This document shows, in pieces, positions 1-6,000 of a stretch of DNA of 64,000 bases (its first letter is position 1; each line of letters starts with the position of its first letter). A program made the position numbers. This DNA comes from an uncultured Candidatus Saccharibacteria bacterium (GTDB lineage: Bacteria; Patescibacteriota; Dojkabacteria; SC72), in NCBI GenBank assembly GCA_964514595.1, contig CAZEQZ010000001.1, positions 182,511 through 246,510 on the forward strand, given 5' to 3'.

Positions 1-3000
1 TGGACAAATTCTCTCTGGTATTAATCCCCTCGTTCTTTTCCTCATAGTTATACTAATTGGGATGTATATATTTTGGCGAGGTTGTTGGGAAACTAGAAAA
101 AACAACTCATCCATATTTGACTCTTTCATTTTGTCCTCGATTGTTGGCCTAATTGTGGGAAGGATGTCATACATAATATCTCATTGGCCAGATTTCGAAA
201 GATATATGTGGTATTGGTTACCGTATGAAAAATATGGAAATGAGGTGTTCTGGTTTAGAGTTTTGCCTTGGAGATTTTTAAGAGTATGGGATTGGGGAAT
301 AGATATTCTGTTAATGTTCGTAGGGTTTTTGATATTTGCAAGTATATGGGTTATGTTTGTGAAAAAGTGGAGGTGGAGTCATCTTTTTACAACTATATTC
401 TTCACTGCACAGATAATGTTGGGTGTGTCATTCCTTCTTTTGGGAGGATATGCAGGTAATGTGGGTTGGATCACACAGGGTGCTGTAATGATACTTCTAC
501 CATTGACACTATTTCTATTAAAAAACTCTGTTAGGGCTATTATGATTGGGAAGAAAGAGTCTAAAGTGTTGAACGTATTAGATACATTTTTTATTTTGTT
601 ACTGGTAGTATATACCACACACACATATCTCACTACACAGATAAGTGTTATAGAAAGAGGAGGCGTGATATTTTTTCTCTTTTGGACAGTGTTGGGCATT
701 ATTTTAAATATAATTGATAATAATAAAGCCAACGTGACCATAGAAAAAGTTTCCTCCGTTACTGCAGTCTCCCCGATAGATATTAATCAACCAATTAAAT
801 TGCCTAAATAGCATATGATAAATATAGGTCAGGAACATATTGGAAAAAGGGCCGATGTTTTTCTCTTTGAATATTTGAGAGATTCAGGGGATATTTCTCT
901 TTCCAGAAGTGTATTAAGATCTAATTGGGGAAGGTTAGTCAAGATAAACAATGTATTTATTAAACCATCATATAAGTTAAGAGATGGAGATGTCGTAGAA
1001 ATAGTATTGGGGGAGATAGATAGATTGATAGCGGAAATAGATGGCAGTAAACGTATAGAGGGAGAAGATGGGGAGTTAAATATATTATTTGAGAATAAAG
1101 ATTTTCTGGTTGTAGACAAACCAAAAGGAATGGTTATACATCCTGGTTTAGGAAATAGGCGAAATACCCTAGCCAACAGGGTAAGAGGATATTTGGAAGG
1201 AAAAGGAGAGTTTGAGAAGAAAATTAACAGAGCTGGGATAGTACATAGACTAGATAAGGGGGTTTCTGGAATAGTAGTATTTGCTAAAACGATCAAGGCT
1301 CAAAACTTCTTGCAAGATCAGTTTGAAAAGCACAAGGTGAAAAAATTGTATTTAGCTAAGGTGCAGTACGGAGAGTTAGATCCAGACGTGCAGAAATATA
1401 TTCCACCAAATAAATTGAACATCAGGGATGAAATCGAAACATTAAAAAGAGATAATTTTGTTCCGGATGAAAGTTGGCTTAGGGTAGAAGGATATATAAA
1501 GAGAGACATTAGAAGTAGAGTAAAAATGGAATTTAAAAAATATCAGAATGGTGATGGTAAAAGAGCTCTTTCTTTCATTAAGCCCATTAGTGATAAAGAA
1601 GTTCTTGTAATAATTCATACAGGGAGAATGCATCAGATAAGGGCGTCATTAGCGTCTCTGGGTATGTATATTGAGGGAGATACACTCTATGGTTCTACTA
1701 GAGTTAGTGAAATGCCAAACCAAATAGGGTTGGAGTCGATACTTTTGGGCTTTAAGGATATGAAGGGCAACGATTTTGTTATTTCAAAAATTTAAAATGG
1801 TAAAGAGGAAGAGAAGGAAAGCAAAAAAAAATATAGGAGTGAATTTGAAATTAATAGTATACATATTACTTTTGTTACTACTAATTTCTCTTGTGGGTCT
1901 TTCATTGTTTAATATACTGTCAATTAATATAGTGGATCCTGCTTTGGAAAACACCTCTAGGCACAAAATACTTTCTCAGTTGGGGGATGATCTGGAAAGT
2001 ACACTGTTTGTATTAGAAAGAGAGAAGGGGGAGCAGAGAAAAATATCAGATGTATATGTTTTCCTGAATAATAGTAAGAAGGGGGAGTCCCTATTAATAT
2101 ATGTCCCTGGCTCTTTGTATTTTAGTGGGTTGGAGGAGAACTTCGGAAGCCCGATAGCAATATCATCTTTAAGATACGCAGGAGATTTCTTGCAGGAAGG
2201 AAGGGGGATCGAATATACGGTATGGCAAATTAGCGAGATACTGGGTTTTAAAATGGACAATTACATTTGGATAACTACAGAAGCATATGAAGTTTTCTGG
2301 GATGTGTACGGGGATCTAAATGAGATAAAGGAGAAGTATAAGGAAGGATATATAAAAGATAAGGATGAAACTTTAGCTGATTCTTTTTTCAAATTGCATA
2401 CAATCTCTTCTAAATATTCTGTCTTAAAAACATTACTCAATTCCAGAAGGGTATCAACCCTTGATGGAAATATGTACTCAAATATGTCTTTCTTGTCTGT
2501 ATTGGGTAGAGTAGATAGGTTTGAAAGTGTTGTGGCTAGGAGCTTAACTAATAGTATAGATATGGGGAGTGCTAAGTATTCAGAAGGAGAACTGTCTGAG
2601 AGGGGAGGGCAAATACGAAGCATCAATATAGCTGAATATGATAAGGCTTTTCGGCAGTATATGTTTAAAATGCTTCCTAGAGAGCAGGAACGAGAAAGAG
2701 TTAGAGTGGAGGTATACAATGCGAGTGGAAGGGCTGGTAGGGCTAGCATATATGCTAGGAAAATATTAAACAATGGGTGTGATGTGGTAAGGTTTGGAAA
2801 TGCTCCTGATAATATCGAGAAAACTCAAGTCTATGTGTCGGATATGGATGAATTTGAAAACTCTTTTAATGTTGTATCAGAAATATTGTTAGGGAAATTT
2901 GAGATAGTGGAAGAGAGACCCTCCTTTATGACTACAGGTGATATTGTAATTCTTTTAGGGGAGGATATATCTCAGATAGAGATATTTTAGGTTAATATTT

Positions 3001-6000
3001 GCTTAAAAAGCATTTTTACTCTAAAATTTTCATTATGACAATGATAATAGCTATTCTTCTACTCCTGCTTCTCTCTTTTGCTTTTGTCGTATTCATATTC
3101 GTATGGAGCAGTAGAAATAAGGTAGAGATAGAGGAGTATGAGGAGGTAAGGAACCCATTTGTTATGCAAATATTGGTGCCAAGGGAGAATGAAAAGGCAT
3201 CTTTGGCTGCAGAACAGATGTTTGCTTCAATACATGGAATTTTGGAGGATCATATTAAATGTCCAGATGTAGTTAGTTTCGAAGTTGCCTCTACAGAGGA
3301 GGATGGTATTAGATTCTATGTTGTAGCACCCCAACATCTTTCTAGATTCATAGAAGGACAGATATATGCACAGTATCCCAATGCAGATATTAAGTATGTG
3401 CAGGATTATGTGAAGAAGGATTCCCCAAAGGAGGAAATATTTGTTACAACAGGAGAAATAGAGATGGAGAAGGACTATATATTTCCTATTAAAACATTTA
3501 GGAGTTTCGAGGTGGATCCGCTTGCTGCTATAACAGGAGCTATGTCGGAATTGAACAGAGGAGAGAAGGTATGGCTTCAGATTATTGTGAGACCGGTCTC
3601 TAACTATTGGCAAGATAGGTCTAAACAGTATATAACTGCGATACGAGAAGGAAGAGATCCTAATGGAACAGGGTTTCTAACCTTCTTTGTTAATGCAATT
3701 AAAGGGATAGGGAAGGCATTAACAGAAAGTTCCGATGGAAAGACTCAAAAGGAAGTAGTTAAACTTGTTCCTGGGCAGGAGGAGGAGTTAAGTGAGATTG
3801 AGAATAAAATGTTGAAGGTCGGATTTGAATTTAAAGTTAGGGCCGTTACGAAGGCAGATACTCAAATTAGGTCGGAGCAAATGTTAAGGGATGTTGTGGC
3901 AAGTTTTAAACAATTCACCACTGCACATCTGAACAATTTTATTCATGCAGTTCCTCAGAAAAGTGGTAAGGAAATATATGATGATTATGCAAGAAGGTAT
4001 TTGCCCAAGGATGAACCTGATATATTGAATATTGAGGAGTTAGCCTCACTATTTCATTTGCCCAACATATCTGTGGAAACCCCTAATATTGCTTGGAGCC
4101 GATCTAAGAAATTAGAGCCTCCTATGAATGTTCCTAAGGCAACAGAAGGATCTGTGACTATATTTGGAGAAACAGATTATAGGGATATTAAAGTTGAATT
4201 TGGAATTAAGAAAGCTGATAGACAGAGACATTTCTATCTTCTAGGAAAGACAGGTACAGGGAAATCTACTCTCTTTAAGAATATGTTCATATCGGATGTC
4301 CTTGCTGGCGAGGGGGTGTGTTTTGTAGATCCCCATGGTGATACTGTAGAGGAGTTACTTGATTACATCCCTCCTAATCGTATAGATGATGTTATATATT
4401 TTAATCCAACGGATGTTACTCATCCTGTTGGTTTTAATATGTTAGAGCTTAAGGATAAATCACAGAGGGACTTAATAGCGGATGGAGTGGTGGAGGTGTT
4501 TAAAAAGCAATTTGGTGATTCCTGGGGTCCAAGACTTCAGTATATTCTCACAAATACCGTAGCTACAGCCTTGGAAGCTCAAGGAACTACTCTCTTAGCT
4601 ATTCTTAGATTGCTTCAGGATAGTAACTATCGTAAATTTATACTAAAACAGGTTGGGGACCCTATTCTGTATAAATTCTGGGTGGAGGAGTTTGCACAAA
4701 TGAGTCAGAATAATAGACTTCTCACAGAAGCTATATCCCCGATTCAAAATAAGGTGGGAAGGTTTGTCTCGTCTGCTGTGATTAGAAACATAATAGGTCA
4801 GGTTAAATCGACTATAGATTTGAGGGATATCATGGACAATCAGAAAATTCTCTTGGTTAATTTAGCGCAGGGTAGGTTAGGAGAAGAGACAGCATCTTTG
4901 CTAGGAGGTATGGTAATAACACGACTTCAGGCTACGGCAATGGAGAGAGTGGATATACCAATAGATGAAAGAAAGGATTTCTTCCTGTATGTTGATGAGT
5001 TTCAGAATTTTGCTACGGAGTCTTTTGCAAAAATACTCTCAGAGGCAAGGAAATACAAACTTAATTTAACAATGACTAACCAGTATATAGATCAACTACC
5101 GCTCACTGTGAGGCAGGCAATATTTGGAAACGTAGGGACATTGGGATCTTTTGTAGTGAGTCCTGCAGATGCCTCTATATTAGAGAAAGAGTTTGCTCCG
5201 GTAGTTTCTGCAGATGATTTGGTATCTTTGGATGCTTGGGCAATGTATGTTAAATTGTGTATAGATGGAATGACATCTGTACCATTTAGTGCTAAATCTC
5301 TCCCTGTTAGATATCACAAGTTTAGTCTGAAAGATGATATTGTTCGCAAATCTAGGGAGAAGTATGGTATAGAGAGGGAGATCATAGAGGAGAAAATTAT
5401 GAAATGGAGTAGTCAATCATATAGTGAGAAGGGGAATCGGTCTGTTATAAAAAAAGAGGAGAAGAAAGAAGAGAAGGGAGATAGGGTGGAGAGAAAAGCT
5501 GTAGAAAAGCTGTCAGAGGAAGAAAAACAGAAGTATGTAGTATCAGTTTAATGTTTCTTTGTGGTATGATTGAGTATGTCAGGTCATTCTAAATGGTCTA
5601 CAATCAAGCATAAGAAGGCATTAAATGATGCCAAAAAAGGCAAAGTATTTTCCAAGGTGTCCGTACAGATAACGCACGCTGCGAGGCAGGGTGGTGGTGA
5701 TCCTAATATGAATCCTTCTTTGAGGATGTATGTAGATAAAGCTAGGGAGGTCGGATTCCCGGCAGATAAGATAGAGAAAGCTATACAGAAGGGTACAGGT
5801 GAGGGTAGTGAAGGAGTCGTGTATGATGATTCGACCTATGAGGGTTTTGGTCCTTTTGGTATCCAGATAATGGTTGATACTTTGACGGATAACAAGAATA
5901 GAACAGTTTCAGATTTAAGGAAATTATTTGAAGATATAGGTGGGAATATGGGGGAGAGTGGTAGTGTATCATGGAATTTTGATATTAAGGGGTTGGTGAT

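Follow-up and report, generated by a model that had tools for sequence, protein, structure and literature searches.

In Patescibacteria, homologues of the VirD4-type coupling protein of type IV secretion systems (T4SSs) occur widely, and 5,713 of them were reported from 2,918 of 3,035 genomes (96%) (Quinonero-Coronel et al. 2025, PMC12102498). The same study describes TrsD, a small protein remotely related to the N-terminal part of VirB4 and encoded beside VirB4 (PMC12102498). The T4SS cluster that is essential in S. epibionticum contains no recognisable coupling protein or relaxase (Wang et al. 2023, PMC10633639). In archaea, CedD is composed of a transmembrane (TM) segment, a domain like the VirB4 N-terminal domain and an ATPase, and is essential for DNA import (bioRxiv 10.1101/2024.09.27.615246). 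Here we analysed a gene at 2999..5551 of a 64,000-nucleotide stretch of a Dojkabacteria genome (contig CAZEQZ010000001.1; hereafter the window), whose product joins a DUF8128 domain to a P-loop ATPase.

The window protein is an unusual hybrid of two known motors, a type IV coupling protein (T4CP) with a front half modelled as VirB4-like, and it is most likely a membrane-tethered coupling or translocase motor. An earlier note on this DNA had described it as a membrane-anchored ATPase of the FtsK/HerA/VirB4/VirD4 superfamily and a candidate translocase of DNA or other macromolecules. Both descriptions hold: its nearest relatives are the T4CPs, and translocation is the most reasonable reading. 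The protein is not an oddity of one genome. Besides the counts reported above, a HMMER search with the first 400 residues gave 2,424 clusters at 50% identity, 1,233 of them with E <= 1e-10. By domain content and abundance, rather than by accession mapping, the window family appears to be the reported orphan T4CP homologues. New here are the predicted VirB4 N-domain fold of DUF8128, the relationship between split and fused forms, a conserved partner protein with sigma-70 region 4 and HARE-HTH domains, and relatives on plasmids and phages.

Much of bacterial diversity falls within Patescibacteria. The members studied rely on other cells, a way of life to which their machinery for secretion and DNA handling is central; the window bacterium (Candidatus Dojkabacteria) is tiny and probably host-dependent. 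A putative VirB4-type docking domain, a two-gene module, a DNA-binding-type partner in most lineages and mobile-element relatives adjacent to VirB4 suggest how a coupling ATPase could attach to a T4SS in monoderm cells.

The two halves of the protein

The closest relatives of the motor, in sequence and in structure, are the T4CPs (TrwB/TraD/VirD4). Through hidden Markov model searches we found TrwB_AAD_bind as the best Pfam family of the window protein (29.4 bits, cut-off 20.5). DUF87, by which the core had been named before, also matched as the second-best label, T4SS-DNA_transf and TraG-D_C matched weakly, and FtsK_SpoIIIE was not significant. There was no match to CagE_TrbE_VirB4 or TIGR00929, and VirB4_plasma reached E 0.003, far under its cut-off. 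The NCBIfam matches (TraD, VirD4-like CD1115, TrbC and CedD) were all sub-threshold; against the curated cut-offs, SXT_TraD gave 37 bits versus 366 and CD1115 31 versus 250. When the ATPase half was compared with known motors, TrwB scored 27.0 (362 residues aligned), the DptH C-domain 24.8, the VirB4 C-terminal domain 24.5, DotL 22.9, HerA 21.9, Cag-beta 21.7 and FtsK 16.7.

The stand-alone ATPase orthologs of other lineages gave a clearer signal. They matched TrwB_AAD_bind with E-values of 1e-13 to 1e-14, as well as T4SS-DNA_transf, TraG-D_C and TraD, and they matched VirD4-like CD1115 over nearly the full length; VirB4 models reached only 1e-4. Since these orthologs match T4CP families far better than VirB4, the motor is considered a divergent member of the coupling-protein branch. 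The window protein has the FtsK/HerA-superfamily nucleotide-binding domain of T4CPs with intact Walker A and Walker B motifs, and its motor and all-alpha domain are most like those of known T4CPs. The P-loop motifs quoted in the earlier note were all located in the protein. Alignments of 38 and 57 homologs show little or no variation in Gly/Lys of Walker A, in Asp-Glu of Walker B and in the R-K-Y...Q motif, and the ARKYKLNLTMTNQ motif aligns with the ARKAGLRVVAGLQ region of TrwB. The features of an FtsK/SpoIIIE protein, namely an FtsK-type motor as best match, an N-terminus with several TM helices and a gamma domain, were not found.

The front half, about 340 aa after the TM helix, had been described as a domain of about 360 aa without known family. 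It indeed gave no match in the Pfam and NCBIfam copies scanned, of which the Pfam copy lacked the PF26449 model, and precomputed Pfam matches placed PF26449 (DUF8128) on the public protein P0001 and on all listed homologs. Our literature search found no paper on PF26449 or DUF8128.

DUF8128 has, in predicted structures, the fold of the VirB4 N-terminal domain. The comparison was made with the N-domain without the P-loop domain, and 254 residues of the model align with the N-terminal domain of VirB4, a VirB4 trait that the window protein thus shares. RecA-fold ATPases resembling the VirB4 motor (TrwB, HerA and the isolated VirB4 C-terminal domain 4ag5) were absent among the matches. Because of this, and because the query contained no P-loop, the match is to the N-terminal domain of VirB4. 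According to the earlier note, best matches to a well-characterised family such as VirB4 with canonical partners elsewhere would refute its reading; half of this applies, the likeness to VirB4 being present in the modelled fold of the N-domain and not in sequence.

Split, fused and mobile relatives

The taxonomic breadth of the family comes from scanning a single genome for each species with aligned short DUF8128 forms and with the 'N-I-E-E-L-A-S-L-F-H-L-P' motif as the pattern; a second homolog search with the family profile still gave mostly Dojkabacteria sequences. A total of 593 DUF8128 relatives were confirmed in the scan, and the best 80 of them are nearly all Patescibacteria by label, with a few under other or generic labels. 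Many DUF8128 proteins are only about 410-440 aa long and end right after K-K-x-E-P-P-x-x-L-P. The linker motif at aa 370-379 of the window protein therefore marks the fusion joint, since the stand-alone domain ends right after the same motif. In about 70 of these best 80 loci a separate ATPase gene follows DUF8128 directly on the same strand, with E-values of about 1e-170 to 1e-190 against the ATPase profile. Of 74 split ATPase subunits, 72 are without a TM segment, whereas most DUF8128 subunits carry one, which means that the membrane anchor comes from DUF8128. Thus the window gene is the fused, single-chain version of a two-gene module found across Patescibacteria.

In a neighbour-joining tree of the motor domains, the window protein grouped with all split forms and with the fused copies of loci L004, L005b and L006 (50-56% identity). 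This level of identity in the ATPase domain across deep lineages indicates a core gene. A second group of fused paralogs (L003, L005a) is more distant, with 43-45% identity. Locus L005 carries two DUF8128::ATPase paralogs a few kb apart (5692-8175 and 10001-12766), and L021 (2194-6999) a split pair followed by an extra ATPase gene, consistent with the reported figure of about two T4CP homologues per genome.

The C-terminal tails differ between the forms. A CxxC-x17-CxxC treble-clef zinc finger (Pfam zf_Tbcl_2, TIGR04272) was found in 38 of 68 split ATPases and in none of 213 fused proteins; the tail of the window protein contains no Cys and hence no zinc finger. Short conserved motifs, either 'D-L-x-x-L-R-K-x-L-E-E' or 'G-E-x-V-x-L/F', also stand at or close to the ends of the split ATPase tails. 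The last eight residues of the window protein are KQKYVVSV (5525-5548), and the C-termini of many Dojkabacteria orthologs resemble it, with K-x-Y-x-V-x-[VIL] behind a Lys/Glu-rich disordered linker. By analogy with the C-terminus of TraD, this peptide may be a docking motif.

We clustered all genes of 86 loci and found a protein of about 346 aa directly upstream (position -1) of DUF8128 in 75 of them. It comprises an N-terminal sigma-70 region 4 (E 3e-13) and C-terminal HARE-HTH/winged-helix domains; the RNA polymerase delta subunit, a name that some sources give the protein, matches weakly. The partner family is uniform, with at least 3,393 members, and wherever a source name bears a taxon this is patescibacterial. 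About 50 loci have SecD-SecF directly before the module and SecA close by, and 7 have a ComEC-type gene 4-5 genes downstream; all else nearby is housekeeping.

Outside Patescibacteria, tblastn with the N-domain gave weak, near full-length matches on haloarchaeal plasmids, Bacillaceae megaplasmids and large Bacillus phages (phage G and Tsamsa-like phages). The Halorussus limi plasmid NZ_CP096663.1 (L090, 380-12039) encodes a T4SS-like cluster with, in this order, a pilin, three proteins without known function, a true VirB4 of 1092 aa (NCBIfam CD1110 E 9e-53; Mbov_0397 E 5e-46 over the full length), a stand-alone DUF8128 protein of 376 aa and a T4CP-like ATPase of 1007 aa; PLSDB types this plasmid as non-mobilizable and MPF_T. 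A Pontibacillus megaplasmid has its copy near a pilin-like conjugal transfer gene of the integrative and conjugative element type and a gene for a sigma-factor-like helix-turn-helix (HTH) protein. Bacillus phage vB_BanS-Thrax4 (L091, 5746-10587) has a fused DUF8128::ATPase of 929 aa with genes for a Replic_Relax protein and a tyrosine recombinase after it and for ParM and a replication initiator close by; this neighbourhood looks like a plasmid-type maintenance or transfer module. The phage G copy is gp156. Among IMG/VR viral contigs no relative with the family motifs was confirmed. From the plasmid and phage contexts, the module is considered an old component of conjugation-type elements of monoderms and archaea, in the position of a coupling protein beside VirB4.

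Gene layout and neighbourhood

The open reading frame (ORF) of 850 aa with an N-terminal TM helix was recovered as the earlier note had given it, and the positions of its features are collected in Table 1. The public protein P0001 is 100% identical and is called from the ATG at 3035 (3035..5551, 838 aa), which is a likelier start than the TTG at 2999; from this ATG an uncharged N-terminus precedes the helix and R-N-K follows it. A Kyte-Doolittle scan found no other hydrophobic segment in the 850 aa, and in the AlphaFold2 (AF2) model a helix spans residues 2-27 (838-aa numbering). With R-N-K behind the helix, the remainder of the protein should be cytoplasmic, the orientation that an ATPase needs.

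Table 1. Positions of the gene, its domains and motifs, its neighbours and the named examples; numbers are window coordinates unless a locus is given (pLDDT, predicted local distance difference test)
Feature	Position	Strand	Remark
Membrane protein	62-811		same-strand run of the first 10 kb
RluD-type pseudouridine synthase	815-1795		same-strand run
Upstream neighbour, TM-anchored, 397/404 aa	1776 or 1797..2990	+	C-terminal LytR_C
Whole ORF	2999..5551	+	850 aa from TTG, 838 aa from ATG 3035 as in P0001; stop codon included
N-terminal hydrophobic helix, aa ~10-36, IFIMTMIIAILLLLLLSFAFVVFIFVW	3026..3106	+	signal anchor; Kyte-Doolittle, AF2 helix
DUF8128 (PF26449) domain, aa 44-380	3128..4138	+	alpha/beta modules; modelled fold of VirB4 N-terminal domain
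Variable loop within DUF8128, aa ~223-252	3665..3754	+	low confidence, pLDDT <50 in both models; columns poorly conserved
'N-I-E-E-L-A-S-L-F-H-L-P' motif, end of DUF8128	4031..4063	+	E, H and P invariant across the family
Linker motif K-K-L-E-P-P-M-N-V-P, aa 370-379	4106..4135	+	between the two halves; fusion joint
Coupling-protein-like P-loop ATPase domain, aa 398-810	4190..5428	+	with inserted all-alpha region
Walker A GKTGTGKST, aa 416-424	4244..4270	+	homolog alignments
Walker B LYVDEFQNF, aa 663-671	4985..5011	+	D-E pair invariant
ARKYKLNLTMTNQ motif, aa 683-695	5045..5083	+	R/K/Y and Q (nearly) invariant
Lys/Glu-rich disordered C-terminal tail	5429..5548	+	ends ...K-Y-V-V-S-V; pLDDT <50; family tail comparison
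YebC	5570-6358		same-strand run
Two acidic proteins between YebC and RuvC	6432-7079; 7125-7676		no Pfam or PADLOC family
Tyrosine recombinase, 454 aa	11062-12426		Phage_integrase and SAM-like N-domain (gene table of L001); long insertion
Cluster with fused GT4+GT2 glycosyltransferase (648 aa), 12-TM protein (633 aa) and 581-aa protein	12464-19663	-	no family for the last two; 581-aa protein with low-complexity acidic N-terminus
Type IV pilus cluster	28722-40575		complete-looking; PilB with MshEN, 548-aa PilT-like ATPase, PilC, several N-methyl pilins, PilD, PilM, unannotated genes
Partner with sigma-70 region 4 and HARE-HTH, examples	L004:8913-10004; L077:6819-7859		
Zinc finger in split ATPase C-terminal tails, examples	L007:1942-3729; L013:9256-10845		aa 444-473 (L007); aa 442-477 (L013)

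The gene upstream had been read as an LCP-family cell-wall ligase and its adjacency as a functional clue. We found only LytR_C in its product (aa 301-390, E 2e-8, Pfam); the catalytic family LytR_cpsA_psr gave no match at E <= 0.1, and none appeared in NCBIfam or PDB sequences. An identity as LCP ligase found no support. In Dojkabacteria (65-78% identity) the gene is part of a syntenic block DnaB...RluD-LytR_C-ATPase...YebC-RuvC-RuvA-RuvB, and it has gone from the ATPase locus in relatives at 38-46% identity. A functional link between the two genes was therefore rejected.

RuvC, RuvA and RuvB also belong to the same-strand run of the first 10 kb in the window. The slot between YebC and RuvC holds different genes in other Dojkabacteria (L087, L088), and the tyrosine recombinase, downstream of RuvCAB and an 8-TM protein, keeps its position in L088. 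No homolog of the sigma-70 region 4/HARE-HTH partner or of SecDF was found in the window at E < 1, and no paralog of the ATPase was found there. A promoter and terminator scan between genes gave nothing above chance. The minus-strand cluster with the fused glycosyltransferase may be an envelope glycosylation locus. The type IV pilus that the earlier note had placed elsewhere in the window is present 23 kb from the ATPase gene, and beyond this co-residence nothing supported a link between the two. The G+C content of the window is about 35%, and its coding is dense and strand-biased. GC skew is very strong and reaches +0.40 in 2-kb windows (1-12000 and throughout) with a sign that follows the coding strand, indicating heavy purine loading of mRNA-sense strands.

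Possible function and comparison with known systems

We favour the reading that the window protein docks onto the Patescibacteria T4SS as an accessory coupling ATPase; it may well do so, and we hold this tentatively. Like its relatives, the motor would form a hexameric ring tethered to the membrane and, powered by ATP, would take up a macromolecular substrate and drive it to a membrane channel. DNA, alone or in complex with protein, would most probably be this substrate; the HTH partner, the zinc finger and, in phages, the relaxase-like neighbour point to it. The VirB4-like N-domain would be the docking and assembly module. Its counterpart in VirB4 is understood, from the R388 T4SS structures, to be in contact with VirB3/VirB8 and with a second VirB4, and for this reason the motor might dock onto a T4SS platform encoded elsewhere in the genome and serve a subset of substrates. 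The sigma-70 region 4/HARE-HTH protein could be a substrate adaptor or regulator in most other lineages; its gene is not adjacent in the window genome. That the DUF8128 and ATPase halves work together is suggested by the adjoining split genes, and T4SS ancestry by the Halorussus, Pontibacillus and phage relatives, which lie beside VirB4, near a conjugal transfer gene and before Replic_Relax, respectively. The reported 96% of genomes with T4CP homologues and the lack of a recognisable coupling protein in the S. epibionticum T4SS cluster also speak for this reading.

Several observations weigh against T4SS docking. Only 148 of the 5,713 T4CP homologues in Patescibacteria lie near virB4, VirB4 occurs in 2,417 genomes, fewer than the 2,918 with T4CP homologues, and in S. 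epibionticum the t4cp homologue, not confirmed as of the DUF8128 type, is dispensable for epibiotic growth and the T4SS is essential (PMC12102498). In the window, as the earlier note had said, no T4SS ATPase or other T4SS family was found among the 27 ORFs scanned with Pfam, the remaining ORFs being outside the scan, and no relaxase turned up in these ORFs or in the annotated neighbourhoods of candidate phyla radiation genomes. The sigma-70 region 4/HARE-HTH partner and the zinc finger, on which the argument for DNA depends, are both absent from the window protein and the window. A canonical T4CP has two TM helices and lacks a VirB4-like domain; the window protein has a single helix. The DUF8128-VirB4 link was not found in sequence by a profile search of all PDB sequences or by a Pfam scan of 18 members at E <= 10, and hhalign of DUF8128 against a true haloarchaeal VirB4 gave a probability of 0.05; with no signal at the sequence level, the relationship is a fold-level one taken from predicted structures only.

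The motor could also import or export DNA independently of a T4SS, like archaeal CedB/CedD, through its own or a competence-type channel and with the sigma-70 region 4/HARE-HTH protein handling the DNA. CedD is the closest functionally characterised protein, at the architecture level only, and the window protein shares its three-part plan. NCBIfam CedD is among the best matches (window protein, E 6e-6; a split ortholog, E 2e-13), but these matches span only the Walker A region and, at 25-50 bits (25 for the window protein), fall far short of the cut-off at 600. In favour, the family has a wider distribution than VirB4, is unlinked to T4SS genes and has a zinc finger and a conserved partner of DNA-binding type; on the other side, no CedA/VirB6-like channel gene is linked to it in any annotated context. 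The downstream ComEC-type gene would fit DNA import, but this proximity is rare and within a syntenic housekeeping block, and natural transformation of S. epibionticum depends on ComEC and type IV pili with no role reported for a DUF8128::ATPase gene. Considering both sides, we regard a Ced-like transporter as rather unlikely. Similarly unlikely, and rated a shade lower, is a bolder version in which the family is a third lineage of the VirB4/VirD4 radiation, a coupling-type motor that kept a VirB4-type N-domain and was domesticated in Patescibacteria with the sigma-70 region 4/HARE-HTH protein as a core chromosomal machine, moving DNA across the membrane independently of conjugation in a Ced-like manner, for instance in the uptake of DNA or nucleotides from a host or the exchange of chromosomal DNA.

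The modelled VirB4 fold of the N-domain, the VirB2-like pilin arrays of Patescibacteria T4SSs and the SecD-SecF genes before the module, with SecA nearby, could instead point to an assembly or extraction ATPase that extracts or loads pilins or envelope proteins at the membrane, with DNA not the substrate. This is quite unlikely, since the motor is T4CP-like and not VirB4-like by sequence, the genomes already carry one true VirB4 each, the conserved partner is of a DNA-binding type, and the SecDF neighbours, missing from the window, are a feature of Parcubacteria-type synteny only. A substitute for FtsK/SpoIIIE, pumping DNA across the membrane to clear or resolve chromosomes at division, would agree with a membrane-anchored member of the FtsK/HerA superfamily. 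It would also agree with the Dojkabacteria block of DnaB, RuvC, RuvA, RuvB and a tyrosine recombinase (in the window YebC, RuvCAB and the Xer-type recombinase adjoin) and with the L004 and L006 copies near the FtsQ/Mur/FtsW division cluster. Such synteny carries little weight because neighbourhoods change between lineages, and we consider this role very unlikely: FtsK has several TM helices where the window protein has one, no domain like FtsK-gamma for DNA recognition was seen in the tail, at which no search was specifically aimed, and TM7x, also a Patescibacterium, has a gene annotated ftsK. Most improbable is an anti-phage defence ATPase of the HerA/DptH/Mad8 type, or a remnant of a conjugative element without host function. 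PADLOC mad8 matched with E 4e-15 and distant relatives occur on plasmids and phages, but the gene is near-universal, lies in conserved housekeeping synteny and keeps its motor at the identity given above across deep lineages; no nuclease, methylase, integrase-flanked island or composition shift surrounds it, and no relative with the family motifs was confirmed in IMG/VR. The mad8 match reflects the shared ATPase fold only and, in this housekeeping context, its defence reading was rejected.

Among known systems, the Ced ATPases act without a relaxase, as the window motor might. They belong to crenarchaea, in another domain of life, their motors CedB and CedD are classed in the HerA/VirB4 clade whereas the window motor is T4CP-like, and in the Ced system each N-domain corresponds to just a part of the VirB4 N-terminal domain (Ced paper), compared with the 254 residues aligned here. 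The CedA/CedA1 partners of that system were not seen in the annotated contexts of the window family. FtsK/SpoIIIE and HerA are hexameric translocases of the same ASCE P-loop superfamily, and FtsK is membrane-associated, but they differ in their N-terminal regions, and neither the HerA beta-barrel nor the FtsK gamma domain was detected in the window protein.

With the T4CPs (TrwB of R388, TraD, VirD4, DotL and Cag-beta) the window protein shares an N-terminal membrane tether and a disordered charged C-terminal tail, with a short conserved end motif as in TraD. In T4CPs the membrane domain stands directly before the motor, whereas in the window protein a cytoplasmic domain of 340 aa, predicted to be VirB4-like, lies between anchor and motor. 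Unlike T4CPs, the window family is encoded by two genes in most lineages, and it is chromosomal, near-universal in one phylum and unlinked to virB4 or any relaxase. A precedent for separating the N-domain from the motor is found in TrsD and TrsE of the pGO1-type Gram-positive T4SS; TrsD, likened here by its description, pairs in Patescibacteria with a true VirB4, while DUF8128 pairs with a T4CP-like motor.

VirB4 (TrwK of R388 and monoderm VirB4) follows the same plan as the window protein, an N-terminal alpha/beta domain and then a RecA-like motor, and with its own TM helix the window protein may resemble the known VirB3-VirB4 fusions. It differs in having no sequence similarity to VirB4 models and a motor nearer to T4CPs, and its neighbours are housekeeping genes, while VirB4 sits in a T4SS cluster with VirB3/VirB6/VirB8. 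Patescibacteria carry a separate true VirB4, and the haloarchaeal plasmid encodes a true VirB4 and the DUF8128/ATPase pair side by side. The anatomy of DUF8128::ATPase could thus be a possible evolutionary link between the VirB4 and VirD4 families.

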